DNA of 64,000 nucleotides from Candidatus Poribacteria bacterium (GTDB taxonomy: Bacteria > Poribacteria > WGA-4E > WGA-3G). Location of the stretch: contig OZ246958.1 of assembly GCA_965232115.1 (NCBI GenBank), positions 4,806,991 to 4,870,990 of the forward strand, read 5' to 3'. Below are positions 1-62,362 of the stretch, in pieces. The position numbers were made by a program, and so were the translations under genes. The notes under the pieces were generated by a model. That model was given only the letters and a program-made list of their open reading frames with translations. It was not told where the DNA came from and did not search any database. Positions within the stretch are counted from its first letter, which is position 1, and each line of letters opens with the position of its first letter.

Positions 1-58
1 CGAATTTGAAACATTGCTGGCGAAAATAGAACATCTCAAACAGGAAGAACCGTTATGA
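1..58 (+). CDS. 3' end of an upstream ORF (partial); its stop overlaps the next start as ATGA
   Basis: Frame 2 is open from the window edge to TGA at 56-58. It overlaps the ATG at 55, which suggests translational coupling with the nucleotidyltransferase gene. Confidence 0.25.
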   Translation, partial: EFETLLAKIEHLKQEEPL

Positions 59-369
59 AATACGGTTTATCAAATAGCACCCTCCAAAAAATTCAGGGCG
101 TTTTAAGCCATTATCCTCAAGTTGAAAAAGCAATTTTGTACGGTTCGCGCGCCACAGGTACCTACCGAAACGGTTCTGATATCGACCTTACGCTTTACGG
201 TGATGCCTTAACGCACAGCATACTCTCCCGAATTGATACCGAACTCGACGATCTTCTGCTACCCTACACAATTGACTTATCCATTTTTCATCAGATTGAC
301 AATCCTGCTATGGTTGAGCAAATTCAACGCATCGGGGTAAACTTTTATGAGAGATACGGAGAGGTCTAA
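55..369 (+). CDS. Nucleotidyltransferase-domain protein (MNT-like antitoxin type, Pol-beta superfamily)
   Basis: GSxATGTxxxxSDIDL motif typical of minimal nucleotidyltransferases; 104 aa. Confidence 0.7.
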   Translation: MKYGLSNSTLQKIQGVLSHYPQVEKAILYGSRATGTYRNGSDIDLTLYGDALTHSILSRIDTELDDLLLPYTIDLSIFHQIDNPAMVEQIQRIGVNFYERYGEV

Positions 370-402
370 CTTCAGGACTATTTACAATAACCCATTTTTC
401 AC

Positions 403-431
403 TTGACATCAGTTAACAAATAGAGTATAAT
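403..431 (+). promoter_or_regulatory. Consensus sigma70 promoter (TTGACA-17 bp-TATAAT)
   Basis: Exact -35 TTGACA at 403-408 and -10 TATAAT at 426-431 with a 17-bp spacer. The identical promoter recurs inverted at 55987-56015. Confidence 0.5.
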
Positions 432-682
432 ATATCATAAGACTTTCCAAAGAGGTGAATATTGTATCAATCTCCAAAACGCTGGCGCAGAAACCGACAC
501 AACATTTTTAGGGACTCCAGAAGTTTCTGACTGACTATCAACCACTGACTGCTGATTGCTGACCGCTGACTGCTAACTCAAAAATGTTACACTTTTCGCC
601 AAATTATTTTTTTTACAGCAGAAAATTAAACATCAACGAACCCTTACGGCCACTATGTTCTCTAACGTTACACACTGGACAC

Positions 683-709
683 AAAATGTTACACCAGTGT
701 AACATTTTT
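683..709 (+). terminator. 26-bp perfect palindrome AAAATGTTACAC-CA-GTGTAACATTTT followed by a T-run; putative intrinsic terminator or operator
   Basis: Perfect 12-bp arms. TTTTT follows immediately. Conserved in copy B (55767-55792) with a compensating loop change. Confidence 0.4.
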
Positions 710-1062
710 AAGGCAAATTGCCGAAAAATATACCATTAAGTTAAAACTGTATTCACATCCGTATTTTCACAGAGGACCGATTTATTCAGCAGTCCAAACC
801 TGCGCGACACCGATCCTGCAAACCTTTGAAGCCACAATCCTGACACTGAAAAGCACCCGAAAATTTCAGAGTGCCGCTGAATCCAAACCCATCCCAAAAC
901 CCTAAGAACCCATGCCCTACCTACATTTATACCGCTTTCCCAAGTTTACAGATTTCCCATTTTACTCTGAAATTCAATAATCCGTGATGTAGACACAGAA
1001 AACTATCAACCCAGAAATATCTCTAATCCTGAAAACCCTAAAAATCCGGATTTTGACAAATA

Positions 1063-1189: not shown

Positions 1190-4100
1190 ATGACTCTTCA
1201 AGAAATAATTCTGACATTAGAGAAATTTTGGGCAGATCAAGGCTGCATTATCCAACAACCTTGTGATATAGAAGTCGGCGCAGGCACATTCAACCCTGCA
1301 ACGTTCTTGCGGTGCCTCGGACCAGAGCCGTGGAAAGTCGCTTATGTAGAACCTGTCCGGCGCCCGACCGATGGCAGATACGCCGAAAATCCATTCCGCG
1401 TTGGGGCATACTATCAATATCAGGTAATCCTCAAACCCGCACCTGAGAACGTACTACCGCTCTACCTTGAGAGCCTTTATAGTCTCGGTATCTCCCCCCG
1501 CAAGAACGATATCCGATTCGTCGAAGACGACTGGGAGTCCCCGACCCTCGGTGCCTCAGGACTCGGTTGGGAAGTCTGGTGGAACGGCGCAGAAGTAACA
1601 CAATTCACCTATTTTCAGCAGATGGGAAGCATCGATCTCGACCCGATATGTGCTGAGATTACCTACGGGCTTGAACGCATCGCACTTTACCTACAGGATG
1701 TCGATGACTTTTTCGATATTCGCTGGAACGAACACGTTAACTACGGCGATGTCCACCGGCAGAGCGAAGTCGAATACTCAACTTACAACTTCGAGCAGGC
1801 AAACGTCCAGATGCTTTTCGACCTCTTCAGCACCTACGAAAAAGAGACGCACGCCTGCTTAGATGCCGGGTTAGTGCTACCAGCGACCGACCACGTCCTG
1901 AAATGCTCTCACACCTTCAATATGCTCGATGCCCGCGGTGTCATCAGCGTCACAGAACGGGTGAGTTACATTGAACGCGTGCGACGACTCGCACAACGGA
2001 TTGCACGGGCATACGTCAAACAGCGTGAAGAAATGGAACATCCCCTCATGGGACGTTTCGGCACGGTATCGCCTTCCACCACCATAGATGAGGTTTCTAA
2101 CCGCACCGAACTAGCTCCCACCCCGGTAGATACGGTTTCTAACCGCACTGAAACCACTGAGCTCCTCTTTGAAATCGGCACCGAAGAGATACCAGCAGGT
2201 TATGTCCCACCTGCGCTTGAGCAGCTTCGCGAAATCGCAACCGACTCCCTTACAAACCACAGAATCCCATTCGGCGAAATTGAAGTCCTGGGTACACCAA
2301 GGCGTATCACACTCAGTGTCAAAGACATAAAAACGCTTCAAGAAAGCCAAGAAACAGAAGTGGTAGGTCCCCCAAAACGCGTCGCGTACGACGAAAACGG
2401 TGAACCTACAAAAGCCGCTATCGGTTTCGCAAAGACGCAAGGCGTGGAACTCTCAGCACTCCGCATCGTTGAAACCGAACGTGGAGAATACGTCGCCGCC
2501 ACTAAACTCGAAGTAGGCGAACCGACGCAAAAGGTGTTGCAAACGCTTCTGCCTGAATGGATCGAAACCCTCCGCTTCCTGAAAACCATGCGTTGGGAAA
2601 CGGAGTATAAAGGACAGCGCGGGTTTGCACGTTTCGCACGTCCCATCCGGTGGCTCCTTGTGCTGTTAGGGAACGAAGTTGTCAACTGTGTTTACGGAGG
2701 ACTGGATGCAGGACGTGTAACTTACGGGCACAGAGCCTTGCATCCGGAACCCATAAATTTGGCATCAGCGAACTTAGACAATTATACCGAAGAACTCCGT
2801 GCTGTCGGTGTAGTCGTTAGTCAAAACGAGCGGCGCGAGACAATCAAAAAACAGGTAACACGTATCTTAAAAGCAGAAGGGTGTCTCCCAAAACTCGACG
2901 ACGAACTACTCGATACGGTGAATTACCTCGTAGAGAACCCACAACCTATCGTCGGCAATTTTAGTGAGTCGCATCTGGAAATACCGCCTGAAGTGCTAAT
3001 CACAGCCATGAAGAAGCATCAACGCTATTTTCCAATGTGGAAAGACGACACGGCACTTACGGCGAAATTCATTACAATCTCCAACGGGACAGATGGCAAT
3101 AGTGATGGCGTTCGACACGGAAACGAACGCGTACTCCACGCCAGACTCAACGATGCCGAGTTTTTCTACAATGAAGATCAGAAAACCAGTCTTGCGGATA
3201 AGGTAGAACGTTTAGGCGCAGTTATTTTTCATACCAAACTCGGTTCACTCTTCGAGAAATCAGAACGGCTTAAAGCACTCGTTTCGTTTATCGGTAAACA
3301 GCTGCAGCTCGAAGAAACAATCGTCTGTCATGCAGAACGCGCAGCTTGGCTCTCTAAGGCAGATCTGACAACCCAAATGGTCATCGAATTCCCATCACTG
3401 CAGGGTATTACGGGGAAATATTACACCCAAAACTCCGGTGAAGAGGAACCCGTCGCTATTGCCATCGCCGAACACTACCAACCCCTTGGCGCAGATACAC
3501 CACTGCCCGAAACCGAAATCGGCGCGATCGTCTCTATTGCCGATAAAATTGACACCATCGTCGGATATTTCGGGATAGAAGAACGTCCAACAGGCTCGCA
3601 AGACCCGTACTCGCTACGACGACATGCCCTTGGGACAATCCGTATCCTCCAAGACCGACAGCTTCCGCTCGCTTTAGATGCCATCGTCCAAAAAGCCGTC
3701 TCACTGTACAAGGTAGCGTTAGCCGACGACACACAAACGAGTGTCCTGAACTTCATCAAAGAACGCCTACGCGTCATCTTGTTGCTGACAGAGCAATACG
3801 CTCCCGACCTCGCCGATGCCGTCTTAGCAGTTGGCAATGTAGACATTATCAACATTCTCAAACGTGCCAACGCACTTGCCGAATTTCGCTTGACACCAAA
3901 TTTTGAGGAAGTATATAATGCACTAAATCGGGTCCTGAGGATTTTACCACAGAATCCCCCAGAAACCGTAGATGCTACGCTGTTGCATGACGATGCCGAA
4001 AAGCAACTGTTCGACCTTATCACTGAAGTAGAACCGAACTTTAAGCAAAGCGTTCAGGAACGCGACTATGCCAAACTTCTAACACAACTCGCCGCTTTAC

Positions 4101-4249
4101 AACCAGCAATAGACACATTCTTTGATGAGGTGCTGGTCATGGCGAAAGAACCCGCACTCCGCACAAACCGATTGGCATTGTTGAACCGAATCGGACGAAA
4201 CATTTATGCTATCGCAGATCTTACAAAACTTGTAATCGCAGGGAAATAA
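1190..4249 (+). CDS. glyQS: Glycine--tRNA ligase, fused alpha (GlyQ) and beta (GlyS) subunits
   Basis: N-terminal 300 aa is the GlyQ signature ([18 protein letters not shown]). The remaining ~690 aa is GlyS-like. One ORF of 1019 aa. Confidence 0.9.
2088..2158 (+). repeat. Two in-frame copies of the GGTTTCTAACCGCAC palindromic element in the glyQS inter-domain linker
   Basis: gaggtttctaaccgcaccg and acggtttctaaccgcactg encode VSNRTE twice exactly at the alpha/beta junction. The same element follows stop codons at 8288-8318 and 8712-8746. Confidence 0.5.
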
Positions 4250-8271: not shown

Positions 8272-8287
8272 TCGCCTATTTTCCCTT

Positions 8288-8318
8288 TTTAATCGGTAGG
8301 CGAGGTTTCTAACCTCGC
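8288..8318 (+). repeat. Palindromic element CGGTAGGCGAGGTTTCTAACCTCGCC just after the stop codon
   Basis: Perfect hairpin GGCGAGGTT/AACCTCGCC around a TCTAA loop. Family member of 8712-8746. Confidence 0.55.
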
Positions 8319-8377
8319 CAATGTTAATGTCCAATTAATTCTAAAATCTACCATATTTTTTTATTTAGGAGCGTTAC

Positions 8378-8701: not shown

Positions 8702-8711
8702 TCCTCGTTAA

Positions 8712-8746
8712 AAGACCCGGTAGGTGCGGTTTCTAACCGCACCGGA
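8712..8746 (+). repeat. Palindromic element CCGGTAGGTGCGGTTTCTAACCGCACCGGACC after the stop codon
   Basis: Perfect inverted repeat GGTGCGGTT / AACCGCACC. Could act as a terminator hairpin, but no T-tract follows. Confidence 0.55.
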
Positions 8747-38063: not shown

Positions 38064-38477
38064 CTACTGATTGGTATCCTCGTCGTCCATACCATTATCA
38101 TCATGGTTGTCCATCATGCCATCGTCGTCCATCATACCATCGTCCATCATGCCATCGTCGTCCATCATGCCATCATCATGCATCATGTCGTCGTCCATCA
38201 TGCCATCGTCCATCATGCCGTCATCATGCATCATGTCGTCGTCCATCATGCCATCGTCCATCATGCCGTCATCATGCATCATGTCGTCGTCCATCATACC
38301 ATCGTCCATCATGCCGTCATCATGCATCATGTCGTCGTCCATCATGTCTTCTGACGAACTGCCTTCCTGCATCATGTCATCGGTAACCGGCATCATGACC
38401 TGCTGTGCCCTTTCACAGGATACAAAGGCGAGACAACTGATTAAAACAGCAATTAAAAGAATCTGAAATTTTAACAT
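38064..38477 (-). CDS. Lipoprotein made almost entirely of Met/Asp/His repeats (DDDMMHDDGMMDDGMM)n; paralog of the preceding gene's N-terminal region
   Basis: Its signal peptide and 5' region are homologous to 37283..37933. The rest of the 137-aa protein is a 16-aa unit repeated about 5 times. The upstream promoter/RBS region is conserved between the two genes. Confidence 0.55.
   Translation of the reverse strand: MLKFQILLIAVLISCLAFVSCERAQQVMMPVTDDMMQEGSSSEDMMDDDMMHDDGMMDDGMMDDDMMHDDGMMDDGMMDDDMMHDDGMMDDGMMDDDMMHDDGMMDDDGMMDDGMMDDDGMMDNHDDNGMDDEDTNQ
38130..38340. repeat. 48-nt coding tandem repeat (about 4.5 units)
   Basis: atgcatcatgtcgtcgtccatcatgccatcgtccatcatgccgtcatc repeated head to tail. 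This produces open reading frames in several frames. Confidence 0.75.
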
Positions 38478-53571: not shown

Positions 53572-54224
53572 CCCTCGCTTTTTCGGTAGAGTTTGCAAGC
53601 CAAAATTTACTATGAAATATTGCCTGCGATGCCTTTCTATAATTTCACTCTTCTATAACCGAAATAACATAGCGAGACGCTATCCCTGAATCAAGTCAGA
53701 CATTACACGTCACGCTTGAATTCGTATTATAATTATACTCTAAAAATCCCTTTCTGTCAACGGATTTGTGTTTTGGACAGCGGGGTTCAATTTGTTAGTT
53801 TAGTAGTTATCAGTGGAAAAGGTTTAGGTATCTGCGATTCAATTGTAAGCTCAAAGGCGAGAGATTTTGTGAGGGACCTACATATTCTCAGATTTTACTA
53901 ATATTTTCAGAGTATTCAGAGTAAAACCCGAAAAGTGATAGATTGTTAAAAGGGTTGTAAACCTTGACTATAACTGGGTTCTGAGTGGTCTTAGCAGAAG
54001 GCGTTTTGCAGACTTACTCTGAAAATCTACAAATGGGAAGTTAGCAGTGGGAGGCGGAGTTCTCTCCTACAAGAATTCGGTTGTCTATTATCCTCGTAGA
54101 AATTACATTTGTTGGTTGTCGAAACGTAGTTGTTCATTATTTTAGGGACCAGTGGGGATGAGGTAGACAGATTCATCGCCCATTTCGCGGAGAATTTTGA
54201 GATTATCACCGAAGTGGAGTTTGT

Positions 54225-54731
54225 TTATTGTGGATCCCCTTGAGTAGGTAGTAAATCTGGCTCGGTAAAATCAAGAGGAAAAGTATCAGAATATTTTGTT
54301 CCTCGAGAATCTTCATAATTAACCGGAATCTTAACTCGCAATTGACTTAAATCACCAAGTGGATTTGCAACACTGGGTTGATTCTGTCTTCTTTCCTGCC
54401 CTGGTGCAAGGACATCAATTCCATTCTTGAGGAAGCCAATGCTTTCAAGCGGTTCACCACCATAAGGCGCAAAAGAAAGATTATCTCCAAATTCAATTTT
54501 ACGGGCAACCCCCGGTCCTACATTTTTTACACAAAGCGTTATTTCATTAACTTGTAAACTATCATCCCGGATGAACGTTGGGGAGGCACGTAGGTAGACT
54601 ATAATTTCTGGTTTGTAAGAGGCTTCTACGAGCTCCTTTGTCAGACGAACATACCGCCACGTGATAAACGCGAGCGCAGCAGTGCCAATTGCTACAACTG
54701 TCCCCATAATTACTGTTAACCATTCTATCAT
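54225..54731 (-). CDS. Hypothetical membrane-anchored protein
   Basis: Single N-terminal TM (LTVIMGTVVAIGTAALAFITW). Sits 11 bp downstream of the 54743 gene. AT-rich context. Confidence 0.4.
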   Translation of the reverse strand: MIEWLTVIMGTVVAIGTAALAFITWRYVRLTKELVEASYKPEIIVYLRASPTFIRDDSLQVNEITLCVKNVGPGVARKIEFGDNLSFAPYGGEPLESIGFLKNGIDVLAPGQERRQNQPSVANPLGDLSQLRVKIPVNYEDSRGTKYSDTFPLDFTEPDLLPTQGDPQ

Positions 54732-54742
54732 GAACTATACCT

Positions 54743-55288
54743 CTATCGGGCGGACTCAGCTATAACTTCAGCTGCTGTCTTCGCTAACAAGTCCAGTGCT
54801 ACATTCGTTGTTTTGCTCCACCTTGTATCTCCAGTCTTTCGATCAACAACGCGAAATTCAACTTTTATTTCTCCGTTTGTGTCGGCGTACTGCGTGATTT
54901 GTGGATCCCCTACAAAAAGATTCATATACTCGCCGACATAGCACTCCACTATGAGAGGGTCAGTCTTATCGCTTGGATAGGTTATCTTTACATTTTTATG
55001 AAGTTGTTGTTCGCGTACGTTGAACCAAGTCCACTCTGTGGCCCAATTTTGGGAGCCATGAGTGACAACACCGGGGACAAAAAAACGCCTTCCTGTTTCT
55101 TTTTCTAAAATTTTACAGATATTTCCAGCGACCGAAAAATCGCGTTTAGCGTTTAAATGATCCGCTTTAACTTTTACCTTTAGAGCGTTGATGTGTTTAG
55201 AAGCTGCTTCGTCATATTCTAAGTAGTCGTAGTTTTGCAAGGCATGCTTAAGCGCATGCACAATTGCTTGATCTTCCCATAGTTGCAT
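54743..55288 (-). CDS. Hypothetical protein
   Basis: 181-aa ORF with no recognised motif. Lies downstream on the minus strand of the copy-B promoter/RNA cassette. Confidence 0.4.
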   Translation of the reverse strand: MQLWEDQAIVHALKHALQNYDYLEYDEAASKHINALKVKVKADHLNAKRDFSVAGNICKILEKETGRRFFVPGVVTHGSQNWATEWTWFNVREQQLHKNVKITYPSDKTDPLIVECYVGEYMNLFVGDPQITQYADTNGEIKVEFRVVDRKTGDTRWSKTTNVALDLLAKTAAEVIAESAR

Positions 55289-55699
55289 TGTATTCTTCTC
55301 CTTGGTTTATGCCACTCATGTCAAAGGCAGTTAGCGTGACAACCTTCTTGTACGCCCAATCTTTATCAACCCCGGCATGTCTTTATTCACCAAGATGTAG
55401 ACGGAAGCCATCATTTTACCTTCTTTTTACCACTATCACAGCGTATCTCATAAATATCTTGTAGGGCTGGGATATGAAAACCATTACATTTATAGTAAAG
55501 TTTAGAATTAAAGAAACATTTCAGGACTCCAAAACATACTGCAGGAGGGGTTTGTAACCCCGACAGAGTGTCTCATTAATTATCGGACCCAGTGTAATAG
55601 AATAAGATAGCACAGAAGAAAAAGAACGTCAAGTGGAAACCGCTCCTACCAATTTCAGGATGTGTAAATATTTTGGCAGCGGATTATCAGAATCAGGAT

Positions 55700-56018
55700 T
55701 TATAGAATTATACGAACATGAATATGTATTTAACTTAACGGTATATTTTTCAGGCGATCTGGCTTAAAAATGTTACACTCGTGTAACATTTTGTGTGTGG
55801 CGTGTAACGTTAGAGAATCCAGTCACAGTAAGGGTTTATTGACGTTTAATTTTTCTTTTAAAAAAAAATAATTTGGCGAAAAGTGTAACATTTTTTTGTG
55901 GCTGTTGGCTATCGGCTATTGGCAGTCAGTCGTTAGTATTTTGTAGATTGATACAATATTCATCTCTTTGGAAAGTCTTATGATATATTATACTCTATTT
56001 GCTAAATTTTGTCAAGTT
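55700..56018 (-). repeat. Copy B of the inverted duplicated cassette
   Basis: Reverse complement aligns to 403-765 with the same promoter, GTTACAC half-sites and palindrome (55767-55792). It lacks the A-specific 100-bp block. Confidence 0.6.
55987..56015 (-). promoter_or_regulatory. Consensus sigma70 promoter on the minus strand (TTGACA-17-TATAAT)
   Basis: tgtcaa at 56010-56015 and attata at 55987-55992 on the plus strand. The spacer is identical to the copy-A promoter. Confidence 0.5.
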
Positions 56019-56229
56019 AAAATGTGTTGGCAGTTTATATCCTTGAGGATTTAGGGTCAAAAACTTTACATATCGCCAATTTCAAGGTTACGGCACACGG
56101 CGCGTGTCTACTACTTTGAACTACCTTCGACGGAGGACAGCTATATGCAGCTTTGAGAATTGACAAGACTGAATTCTCAGGGTATGATATTGTGGTATCA
56201 AAGTAAAATCGTGATGATGGAAAACAACA

Positions 56230-60059: not shown

Positions 60060-60887
60060 TTAATATGAGGATTTAATCTCACTCCAAGTGGTAGAGAGTT
60101 TACCTTTGGCATCAACATCAAAGCCGTTGGCATTCGTAACCAGAACACTATCAACTCTGCCCATTCCCCAGCTTTCATGCCAGATACCGACGCTGCCAGC
60201 ACTGGTATTATCGGCATTTTTGTATTCAAGGATAGGAGCTCCGAGGTCTTCGGAGGATGCAAACAGGTCATCAACCTCAGCAAGTTCCATGTACCATATC
60301 TTGACATTCTTGCCATCGACCTCAACGCGTCCGAAATAAGGGACAGCGTTGGTTTGGTCGAGCCCGCCGCCTAAGCCGTGTGGCACAGATTCTAATTCCT
60401 TACCGCCGTTCTCACACCCGCACTGGTCGAGACACTGGCCAGACGGACAGCAGCCATCTGCGAGATCCATGAAAAGGACAGATGCGGTTTCATTATATCC
60501 AAAGACAGCAAGGTAGCCTTTATCGTCCCCTTTGCGCCGGAACTGAAGCCCCACACTATCATCATCACCAAACGAGAAGACCATTTGGACGATACCGTCG
60601 GTGAAGTTATCAACGCCGGGCAGTGCTGTGTTACCGGAGATGCCACAGCCTTCAGCGGTTTGCTTCATGGATCCTTTTCCGCCGAGTTTACCGCCTTCAA
60701 AATCATCCGCAGCCCAGATGGTCCCGGCGTTCTCGGCTTTATATTTTTTGATGTCGTTCACACCTGCATCAGGTATAGCGTCCTTAGAGCCCGGCTCAAA
60801 ATCGGCGTAAAACACAACTTGCCCGGTAGCGTGAAGTGAAACAAATAGACTCAAAGTGAGAATTAAAAGAAAAAAACGTGTTTGCAT
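60060..60887 (-). CDS. Secreted protein with conserved Cys motif ADGCCPSGQCLDQC(G/S)CENGG; paralog 1
   Basis: Signal peptide. Near-identical architecture to 61538..62362 and weak resemblance to 13775..14620. Probably a beta-sandwich lectin-like fold. Confidence 0.5.
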   Translation of the reverse strand: MQTRFFLLILTLSLFVSLHATGQVVFYADFEPGSKDAIPDAGVNDIKKYKAENAGTIWAADDFEGGKLGGKGSMKQTAEGCGISGNTALPGVDNFTDGIVQMVFSFGDDDSVGLQFRRKGDDKGYLAVFGYNETASVLFMDLADGCCPSGQCLDQCGCENGGKELESVPHGLGGGLDQTNAVPYFGRVEVDGKNVKIWYMELAEVDDLFASSEDLGAPILEYKNADNTSAGSVGIWHESWGMGRVDSVLVTNANGFDVDAKGKLSTTWSEIKSSY

Positions 60888-61537: not shown

Positions 61538-62362
61538 CTAATAGCTGCTTTTAACGTCGCCCCAGGTTGTGGAAAGTTTGGAATGTGGATCGACCGCTGT
61601 CATGCCGCCGGGTCCCCAAACAGAGACGCTACCGACTCTTCCGTTGCCCCAACTTTCGTGCCAGATGCCGACTGTCCCGGGTCCGGCATCATCTGCGCCG
61701 TCATATTCAGCGATTGGATCGCCAAGATCATCAGAGCTTGCGAAGAGATCGGATACATCATCAAGTTCCATGTACCAGACTTGAATGAGGCTTCCGCTGA
61801 CTTCAACACGCGCAAAATAGGCGACGCTGTTGTCTTGTGTGAGATCGGCCCCTAAGCCATGGTCCACACCGACGAGTTCGTTACCACCGTTTTCGCACGA
61901 GCACTGGTCGAGACACTGTCCAGACGGACAGCACCCATCCGCAAGACTTCCGATAATAATTTGGGGGGTTTCGTTATAACCGAATGCGACGAGATAGCCA
62001 CTGTCTTCACCAACACGACGGAACTGGAATCCGACACCGTCATCATCTTGCCATGAAAAAACGGCTTGGATGATACCGTCGGAGAAGCTATCAACACCCG
62101 GAAGCGGTGTATTCCCAGAAATACCACAGCCTTCAGCACTCTGATGCAAAGCATTTCCGCCATCAGGGAATTCAGCGGACTCGACCCAAACAGTACCAGC
62201 GTTTTCTGGCACCCAATTTGCGGGGTCGTTGACGCTGGCATCAGGGACGGCTGCAGAGGAACTCGCTTCAAAGTCAGCATGGAAAATTAGCTGCGCGCTT
62301 GCGTGGCTAATTAGGACAATTGAAAAAAGCGCGATGAACATCGTGAGGTAGGTTCTTTTCAT
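61538..62362 (-). CDS. Secreted Cys-motif protein; paralog 2
   Basis: Same length and blocks as paralog 1 (HESWG, AEGCGISGNT, YLVAFGYNET). Confidence 0.5.
   Translation of the reverse strand: MKRTYLTMFIALFSIVLISHASAQLIFHADFEASSSAAVPDASVNDPANWVPENAGTVWVESAEFPDGGNALHQSAEGCGISGNTPLPGVDSFSDGIIQAVFSWQDDDGVGFQFRRVGEDSGYLVAFGYNETPQIIIGSLADGCCPSGQCLDQCSCENGGNELVGVDHGLGADLTQDNSVAYFARVEVSGSLIQVWYMELDDVSDLFASSDDLGDPIAEYDGADDAGPGTVGIWHESWGNGRVGSVSVWGPGGMTAVDPHSKLSTTWGDVKSSY

Follow-up and report, generated by a model that had tools for sequence, protein, structure and literature searches.

Background

Correia elements of Neisseria (CREE/NEMIS) are bounded by inverted repeats of 26 bp, duplicate a TA target and contain an IHF site, and they are near-symmetric and without a fixed orientation; they are often co-transcribed with their neighbours and can supply promoter or terminator activity. 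REPs are 20-40 nt long, begin with GTAG, often form inverted pairs, lie mostly at the 3' ends of genes and depend on RAYT transposases. Multi-copy families of leader or small RNAs, such as Brt of Bartonella, precede one gene family and have a conserved structure. The attC sites of integrons have outer ends of the form RYYYAAC ... GTTRRRY, occur in cassette arrays and lie downstream of an open reading frame (ORF). The class of putative mobile promoters, finally, comprises similar upstream regions that are common to unrelated genes, both within and between genomes (Matus-Garcia et al. 2012, PMC3488235), and it is defined only by the similarity of 50-100 nt upstream of coding sequences (PMC3488235). 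Here we analyze a window of 64,000 nt from a Candidatus Poribacteria bacterium (GenBank assembly GCA_965232115.1, contig OZ246958.1, positions 4,806,991 to 4,870,990 of the forward strand), in which two inverted, promoter-bearing intergenic cassettes, A and B, lie about 55 kb apart. Both cassettes almost certainly belong to a dispersed repeat family of Poribacteria. The repeat is a new family, of a kind already known from bacterial intergenic repeats and putative mobile promoters; neither Rfam nor the searchable literature yielded a description of it.

In its size (~100-155 bp), inverted-repeat boundaries, intergenic location and high copy number, the repeat resembles the Correia elements, but its own inverted repeats measure 12 bp, no target duplication is seen, its orientation is strongly fixed and it has no sequence similarity to them. 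With REP/BIME/REPIN, BOX and ERIC sequences it shares a short palindromic or modular intergenic organization and lineage-specific concerted evolution; unlike REPs, it lacks GTAG, spans ~130 bp, is tied to the 5' side of genes and does not form one long hairpin. As with mobile promoters, the promoter module of the window recurs before about ten unrelated loci, although the most widespread part is a core of ~130 bp downstream of the promoter and most cores lack the module. A strong promoter, a non-coding transcript of ~200 nt (predicted here) ending in a hairpin and a co-oriented downstream gene are reminiscent of the Bartonella Brt type, from which the repeat differs in that its downstream genes are unrelated and that it has no covarying structure. 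Identity with attC was rejected, given the reversed order of the arms (GTTACAC ... GTGTAAC) and copies that are solitary, dispersed and tied to the downstream gene. The unusual features of the element are its orientation lock to downstream genes, the perfect promoters associated with it and a 9-mer that each copy retains three times.

A dispersed repeat family in Poribacteria

The initial annotation interpreted the two cassettes as a duplicated small-RNA gene, and stated that this would be refuted by numerous dispersed copies bearing the terminal features of a mobile element. Such copies are what we found: the conserved body belongs to a large family (at least 112 loci), whose dispersed members have terminal inverted repeats and sharp boundaries, and the notion of a single duplicated gene is accordingly abandoned. 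The palindrome scan that yielded these loci covered one genome per species with the pattern AATGTTACAC-N(1-6)-GTGTAACATT; the family statistics given below cover at least 112 loci (labeled L and a number) from ~40 genomes, nearly all of them Candidatus Poribacteria, and 927 kb of sequence. A few matches in Chloroflexaceae and Bacteroidetes are unrelated repeats or chance. A chromosome holds up to 8 loci among the matches listed, spread over megabases, and within a lineage the core is found at dozens of loci that are unrelated to one another. When the intergenic regions of the window were compared with the loci using BLAST, most loci matched positions 575-715 only, and the promoter block was common to about 6 loci. 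A profile search of the 927 kb produced 105 full-length copies, and 103 of the 117 palindromes in the loci sit within full-length elements; in the window there are exactly two copies. Viral contigs gave no match to the element, and in the JGI metagenomes there were 0 matches to the central-block pattern and a single locus (L113-L116) for the left-end pattern.

The core unit has a median length of ~132 nt and occupies 581-709 and 55894-55766 in the window. Its consensus starts with AAAATGTTACACTTTyCGCCAAATTATTTTTTT, followed by an A-rich variable stretch, continues in the centre with AAAAtGyCTnTAAACCCTTAC-N5-ACTGGGTT and then ..CGATAAcc.., and closes at the right end with the palindrome CAAATGTTACAC-NN-GTGTAACATTTTWARG and TTTTWARG. 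The edges of the core are the 12-bp inverted repeats AAAATGTTACAC and GTGTAACATTTT, of which the right one is doubled into the palindrome, and beyond both edges the similarity is lost abruptly (66-101 copies aligned). The 9-mer ATGTTACAC at the left end is exact in 85 of 101 copies, though it lies outside the search pattern, and is present three times per copy. The central dinucleotide of the palindrome varies (TG in 58 copies, CA in 17, AA in 10), with CA in copy A and GA in copy B, and the spacing between the left site and the palindrome ranges from 102 to 112 bp.

A variant subfamily (L076, L013, L106, L051) has the palindromes GTTACCA-WW-TGGTAAC and GATACCA-TT-TGGTATC, in which the symmetry is still perfect, together with additional half-sites in both orientations and a left-end hairpin with a T-run; while the palindrome is altered, the main-type left site is retained. 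Variant and main-type elements stand in tandem before one gene in L013 (3836-3990 and 4159-4296) and L106 (3017-3105 and 2455-2590), and also in L076 and L051. At one locus the element is split by ~550 nt. The central motif AACCC.TAC...GACTGGGTT also occurs alone (L071 5759-5779, 5860-5880 (-); L057 4739-4759; L066 6288-6307), suggesting that the element is assembled from smaller modules; in L071 both lone motifs fall between the element and glyQS.

Architecture of the two copies in the window

Region alignment and a repeat finder both recover the annotated inverted copies, A at 396-764 on the plus strand and B at 56022-55710 on the minus strand. The repeat finder resolves three collinear inverted blocks, 396-479 against 55939-56022 (92% complementary), 580-728 against 55747-55895 (83%) and 723-764 against 55710-55751 (81%). 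The promoter motif TTGACA-17-TATAAT is exact in both copies, as had been noted, with 12 of 12 matches at 403-431 (+) and 56015-55987 (-). So is the palindrome AAAATGTTACAC-NN-GTGTAACATTTT, which is 26 bp long, perfect and directly followed by TTTTT at both sites (683-708 and 55767-55792). Each copy contains the 12-mer AAAATGTTACAC at three places, two of them in direct and one in inverted orientation, and the last two build the 26-bp palindrome; the 6 matches of the 12-mer in the window compare with 0.42 expected, and this number was reached in 0 of 100 shuffles. The ~250 nt of conserved sequence reported after the promoter are indeed similar, but they do not constitute a single stretch: a 50-nt 5' block is followed by a variable linker (101 nt in copy A, ~45 nt in copy B), a 129-nt core and an extension of ~55 nt. 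The CTGACTG block described as an extra of copy A is a genuine array there, with 4.9 copies at 545-578, while copy B has degenerate heptamers in the same place. The parts of the two copies are the following.

396-479, plus strand: promoter module of copy A, with TTGACA at 403-408, a 17-nt spacer, TATAAT at 426-431 and the conserved 5' block ATATCATAAGACTTTCCAAAGAGG
480-580, plus strand: variable linker of copy A, holding the heptamer array CTGACTG at 545-578
581-709, plus strand: core of copy A, the dispersed ~130-bp repeat (nhmmer E = 2e-29), made up of the left inverted repeat AAAATGTTACAC at 581-592, a T8 run, the central AACCCTTAC block, the half-site AACGTTACAC at 664-673 (in the window's subtype only), the palindrome at 683-708 and a final T at 709
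710-764, plus strand: 3' extension of copy A, in the window's subtype only, AAGGCAAATTGCC GAAAAATATACC.TTAAGTTAAA..TATTCAC
55939-56022, minus strand: promoter module of copy B, with TTGACA at 56015-56010 and TATAAT at 55992-55987
55895-55938, minus strand: variable linker of copy B, with the degenerate heptamers ACTGACTG CCAATAG CCGATAG CCAACAG
55766-55894, minus strand: core of copy B, with the left inverted repeat at 55894-55883 and the palindrome at 55792-55767 (nhmmer E = 1e-29)
55710-55765, minus strand: 3' extension of copy B, of the window's subtype
54228-55709, minus strand: ~1.5 kb directly after element B, context outside the repeat, with ORFs at 55288-54743 and 54731-54225 and no counterpart in L019 and L042

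The 3' extension is common to copy A and L033, L074, L079, L058, L078, L050 and L016. In the lineage of the window the element travels within a longer unit, which consists of the sigma-70 promoter module, the heptamer linker, the core and the 55-bp extension. Tandem repeats of heptamers (CTGACTG, GCCAATA and variants) also recur in long intergenic regions, in the window at 545-578 and 1073-1097, and often stand immediately to the left of the element, as in many left flanks in L043, L005, L004, L063, L058 and L079. No coding potential was recognized in the element: a 51-aa ORF in copy A (584-739) ends after 11 codons in copy B, any reading frame in the core of the aligned copies is broken by changes in T-run length and a 7-nt deletion, and short ORFs 3' of the promoter module are not conserved.

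The neighbours are as annotated. Copy A lies upstream of glyQS, with 1190-4249 encoding a fused glyQ-glyS (Pfam alpha and beta subunits), and copy B upstream of two ORFs (54225-55288) that have no Pfam match; an archease gene is located upstream of copy B and divergent from it. Upstream of copy A, 1-369 (+) encodes a 104-aa nucleotidyltransferase of the Polbeta/MNT type, in the place of which L071 carries another gene. The start of the nucleotidyltransferase gene and the stop of an ORF that runs off the start of the window overlap (ATGA), an arrangement typical of toxin-antitoxin pairs.

Orientation and position relative to genes

The element nearly always lies between called genes, falling within a crude ORF call in 5 of 105 copies. 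The downstream gene is co-oriented with it in 84 of 99 copies, or in 54 of 67 contexts once orthologues are collapsed by downstream protein (p = 4e-7), whereas co-orientation of the upstream gene (42 of 70 contexts) is not significant and corresponds to the usual level for neighbouring genes. Divergent gene settings are common, and convergent ones are rare (4 of 60). These statistics place the element on the 5' side of the gene that follows it, and a role as the terminator of the upstream gene is ruled out. The downstream genes are unrelated, including those for a peroxiredoxin, nuoE, glyQS, bioD, a nucleoside hydrolase, oxidoreductases, an HpcH aldolase and a ParA-like protein as well as many unknowns. 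The next ORF begins between 6 nt and over 600 nt past the element (median ~200-250 nt), and in many loci start codons lie 6-60 nt past the element.

Both positions in the window are kept in other species. In L071 (OZ242349.1), whose GlyQS is 82% identical, the element stands 392 nt before glyQS, in an intergenic region that is otherwise unalignable except for the 90 nt before the start codon; the upstream neighbour of copy A differs from that in L071 and the downstream gene, glyQS, is the same. The position of copy B is kept in L019, L042 and L066, in the order membrane protein, archease, element, aldolase. After element B, the window has the two hypothetical genes, followed by a remnant similar to a DNA methyltransferase N-terminus (54130-54228, minus strand); the same place is taken by a T5orf172-domain gene in L042, and L019 has neither. 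Identity is 84% between copies A and B, compared to only 67-73% between these copies and their positional orthologues, and both have their nearest relatives at different loci in related genomes (L074, L033, L095). Across the family, mean identity is 0.725 for pairs within a genome and 0.643 between genomes. That likeness within a lineage exceeds likeness between positional orthologues points to lineage-wide homogenization or replacement.

These comparisons bear on another proposal of the initial annotation, that the cassettes delimit a 55-kb segment capable of inversion, as recombination sites would. The copies stand in inverted orientation with 83-92% identity across ~320 nt, and the palindrome has the 12+2+12 bp layout of a hix-type site; such sites of DNA invertases have identical central dinucleotides and go together with an invertase gene and an enhancer. 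Against this, there are more than 100 copies at unrelated loci, the palindrome centres differ between the two copies (CA and GA) and vary across the family, and the neighbours of copy B match its orthologues on both sides and those of copy A match L071 on the downstream side, in positions kept in other species; the two loci are ~740 kb apart in OZ242349.1. We consider an invertible segment highly improbable. GC skew across the window was uninformative on inversion. The palindrome geometry is also that of gix sites, and the half-site TGTTACAC is one base off the parS half-site TGTTTCAC. Identity with hix, gix or parS was nevertheless rejected, considering the more than 100 copies around chromosomes, the varying centre, a 2-bp spacer alien to parS and the placement of the palindrome within a gene-oriented unit of 130 bp.

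Gain and loss at single sites

The element is gained or lost at single sites, yet its position is kept across species in which the surrounding non-coding DNA is unalignable. A filled and an empty version of one site can be compared: L006 and L037 carry the element where L030 has a 19-nt spacer between a gene of 76 aa and nuoE, and L018 has a different filler sequence at this spacer. Such a pair is compatible with a non-autonomous mobile element, of the MITE or Correia type, whose 9-12-mers would bind a transposase or recombinase encoded elsewhere, with the promoter link and the orientation bias resulting from insertion survival. The 12-bp terminal inverted repeats of the 5'-TG...CA-3' type, the sharp boundaries and the length of ~130 bp agree with this possibility, as do the greater likeness of copies within a genome or lineage, the palindrome subfamilies that keep the symmetry of the arms and have several half-sites in both orientations, and the one element split by ~550 nt. 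However, neither 68 aligned copies nor the comparison of L006 and L037 with L030 reveals a target-site duplication. No long form, isolated end or repeat-flanked transposase was found in the 927 kb of related loci, where one DDE transposase gene, not flanked by repeats, lies 566 nt downstream of one copy. Furthermore, many copies are ancient and conserved in position, none is present in viral contigs, and a strong orientation bias is unexpected for a near-symmetric transposon. A mobile element of this type is a realistic but doubtful explanation.

Promoters around and inside the element

Promoter-like sites upstream of the element share its direction: between positions -100 and -51, counted from the start of the element, 15 point forward and 1 points in reverse. 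A perfect TTGACA-17-TATAAT occurs 37 times in the 927 kb, and 12 of these sites lie at most 200 nt upstream of an element and on its strand, compared to 0 on the opposite strand, in regions that make up ~1% of the sequence searched. Promoters with at least 11 of 12 matches within 200 nt upstream are found in the forward direction at 17 of 99 copies and in reverse at 2. The whole promoter module, ATTTTAAC-TTGACA-..GTTAGCAAA.AGAG-TATAAT-ATATCATAAGACTTTCCAAAGAGG, is shared by ten loci (A, B, L100, L079, L016, L050, L074, L078, L014 and L059) that have different genes downstream, and two further recurrent promoter modules were seen among the loci. The same upstream sequence, with its predicted promoter, thus precedes non-homologous genes, which is the mark of the putative mobile promoters. 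Downstream of the element, promoter-like sites on the same strand are likewise in excess (27 forward, 1 reverse), as expected where the downstream gene has its own promoter. As an aside, perfect-consensus promoters seem common in these genomes, judging from the 37 in 927 kb, and the window holds a third one at 53732-53760 (-), upstream of an HpcH/HpaI aldolase gene (53598-52858) and kept in L019 and L066.

The best sigma-70-like site inside the element is TnnACA-18-TAACAT, with the -10 hexamer within the right arm of the palindrome. It could be part of a promoter with operator, in which transcription would start at the conserved WARG and a dimeric regulator, bound to the palindrome and to the half-site ~100 bp upstream, would repress many genes. 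The internal match is the best one at a fixed alignment column, with A2 and T6 of the hexamer present in 68 of 68 copies, although the invariance of TAACAT carries no weight because it was fixed by the search pattern. L008 has TTGACA-18-TAACAT, and a purine is conserved 6-8 nt past TAACAT. Some genes start 6-17 nt after the element, the ATG in L113-L116 coincides exactly with the predicted start, an element lies between a strong terminator and a gene in L053/L082, and three sites are conserved in sequence. On the other hand, the candidate promoter averages 7.2 of 12 matches and has a poor -35, the distance of 102-112 bp between left site and palindrome shows no helical phasing, the downstream genes have no functional theme, and the variant subfamily changes the palindrome while keeping the main-type left site. 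A promoter-operator unit consequently appears quite unlikely to us. Other internal promoters failed on spacing: a sigma-28 -10 reading of CCGATAA, made by eye, would have 22 nt in place of 15, and the window's subtype lacks CCGATAA; ECF-type and sigma-54 readings were rejected as well.

Structure of the putative transcript

The initial annotation had envisaged a structured RNA, and of this nothing was recovered, be it covariation, excess stability or an Rfam match. With Rfam 15 at the gathering score there was no match in the window, and 18 related loci gave only tRNA elsewhere and none at the elements; at E up to 10, the regions 350-1250 and 55250-56200 matched only eukaryotic or viral families at chance level. 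The Rfam 15 search found no T-box before glyQS, where some phyla would be expected to have one, and a 'Poribacteria-1' motif had no match in the Rfam 15 test. In an RNAalifold analysis of 68 copies, the palindrome was the sole predicted structure and there were 0 covarying pairs, and the putative transcripts folded no better than shuffled sequences (z of +1.4 and -0.26). Three further helices were considered and discarded. A central AAACCC/GGGTTT hairpin, specified by hand, is contradicted by 11-19 C-A mismatches per pair, and changes at its first pair are uncorrelated. A hairpin after the T-run (GGCA-AAT-TGCC, GGAG-AAT-TCTCC) looks compensatory by eye but is not a general feature, with a mean z of -0.2 over 102 copies. 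The third, in which the 5' block would pair with the 3' extension (GTGAATA/TATTCAC in copy A, ATGAATAT/ATATTCAT in copy B) has one suggestive compensatory change and is lost in L079, L074 and L050.

The hairpin formed by the palindrome has 11 pairs, 3 of them G-C, and -9.2 kcal/mol, with four pairs formed by the U-run itself; a canonical Poribacteria terminator in L082 has -21 kcal/mol, and a consensus terminator scan of the window called neither palindrome. Of the intrinsic terminator suggested in the annotation, the order of promoter, body, hairpin and T-run stands, but a stem so rich in AU would terminate only weakly. Conservation of the T-run that follows the palindrome is 97% and 95%, compared to 83% and 72% for the mirror A-run. 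Efficient termination is hard to reconcile with the insertion in the spacer between the small gene and nuoE and with genes that start 6-17 nt after the element. Canonical terminators upstream of elements were found at one orthologous locus only, L053/L082, in which 22 nt separate a terminator of -19 kcal/mol from the element and 12 nt separate the element from the start of the gene. As this terminator precedes the element, a purely RNA-level leader is difficult to accommodate there.

The core is G-poor on the strand of the element (11-17% G), with invariant C-rich and U-rich blocks. In the main family the left 9-mer has no local pairing partner in the fold, and its conservation argues for sequence-specific recognition. 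More generally, the retention of ATGTTACAC three times per copy without a structural reason suggests a sequence-specific partner. The palindrome changes that preserve symmetry fit a hairpin and a dimeric binding protein alike.

The small-RNA idea can also be framed for the family as a whole, as a multi-copy set of independent trans-acting small RNA genes of 150-280 nt, with a single-stranded AAACCCUUAC-type motif in the 3' domain and termination at the hairpin and U-run; the shared orientation of element and downstream gene would in that case reflect only the tolerance of read-through past a leaky terminator in this direction. Perfect promoters are strongly enriched 50-150 nt upstream on the same strand, a second promoter lies between element and gene in L059, L013, L106 and L048, and a TTGCTT-17-TACAAT block just before glyQS is kept in L071, which makes the upstream unit look separate. 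The G-poor core is predicted to be unstructured, with its C-rich and U-rich blocks invariant, in line with this proposal. Yet ~80% of the copies have no strong upstream promoter, and some are squeezed into a gap that leaves 8 nt to the preceding stop codon and ~20 nt to the following start, or have a start codon 6-17 nt after them. The predicted terminator is weak, and neither covariation nor an Rfam match was found. We judge independent small RNA genes to be unlikely.

A proposed portable module on the 5' side of genes

The reading that we favour, with a probability that we place at about even, is that the element is a portable module for the 5' side of genes, which is read rightwards and is tolerated or used only in that orientation. 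This comes close to the repeated regulatory leader that the initial annotation listed as an alternative to its small RNA. The reading is preferred because it accommodates all contexts. Its rightward direction is drawn from the promoter-like sites upstream on the strand of the element and from the T-run, which is better kept than the mirror A-run. A strong promoter just upstream, with starts near 438 and 55980 in the window, would drive a non-coding leader transcribed through the core; elsewhere the core may be read from the upstream gene or from its own weak promoter (TnnACA, 18 nt, TAACAT in the right arm). The hairpin, rich in AU and followed by a short U-run, would be at most a leaky stop, or a site for processing or protein binding, and this step would set the amount of transcription that reaches the downstream gene. 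The element is compatible with downstream expression, as the insertion in the nuoE spacer (L006, L037) and the gap in L053/L082 illustrate.

Several points weigh against the portable module. The use of the promoters, the ends of the RNA and the function of the hairpin are all predicted from sequence, and a role at the RNA level hangs on the hairpin, given that there is no covariation and no excess folding stability. Since all loci were found through the exact palindrome, its invariance is uninformative on selection. The configuration with a strong promoter is not general, as only about 1 in 5 elements has one, and the internal candidate is weak, with its mean of 7.2 of 12 matches. Because of the distance and the intervening promoter-like sites, many copies may not directly control the downstream gene. 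Finally, the ORF calls in the related loci, which were taken as the longest ORFs of at least 90-100 aa, are crude.

A broader version is that the element is the cis-site of an undescribed phylum-wide system, either a sequence-specific regulator, binding RNA or DNA, that reads the three ATGTTACAC sites at dozens of 5' regions and so unites them in a single large regulon built by repeat dispersal, or a form of dispersal that leaves no target duplication and sets a cassette of promoter and leader before genes in one orientation. The palindrome subtypes (GTTACAC, GTTACCA, GATACCA) would then reflect several partner proteins. We hold such a system to be an improbable, if conceivable, explanation.

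Other repeats in the window

A second small repeat consists of GTAG and a short hairpin with a TTTCTAA loop, for example CGGTAGGTGCGGTTTCTAACCGCACCGG, whose stems differ by compensatory changes. Its sites in the window are 2073-2110 and 2115-2152, within glyQS, and 8285-8322 and 8709-8746, in intergenic DNA; it is also present in L062, L014 and L086. The two copies within glyQS are in tandem and in frame, in the linker between the alpha and beta parts of the ORF. GTAG followed by a palindrome is the hallmark of REPs, and this repeat is a separate family from the ~130-bp element. At 38071-38387 there is a long tandem array of alternating 15- and 18-nt periods (CATGCCATCGTCCATCAT...), with at least ~14 units. 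The segments 60318-60667 and 61799-62148 are direct repeats, 70-74% identical and 1481 nt apart, and look like a tandem gene duplication.

Conclusions

Poribacteria are uncultured sponge symbionts that have no genetics, and to our knowledge nothing is known about their gene control. The two copies described here are not a special feature of the 55-kb region or of glyQS. At least 67 unrelated genes have the repeat on their 5' side, and it thus offers a handle for the annotation of promoters and leaders; it should be masked or modeled in these genomes, lest each copy be rediscovered as a new small RNA. The promoter module and the hairpin are candidate parts for work in heterologous hosts. If it is true that one protein reads the 9-mer, the family would illustrate clearly how a spreading repeat can assemble a regulon.

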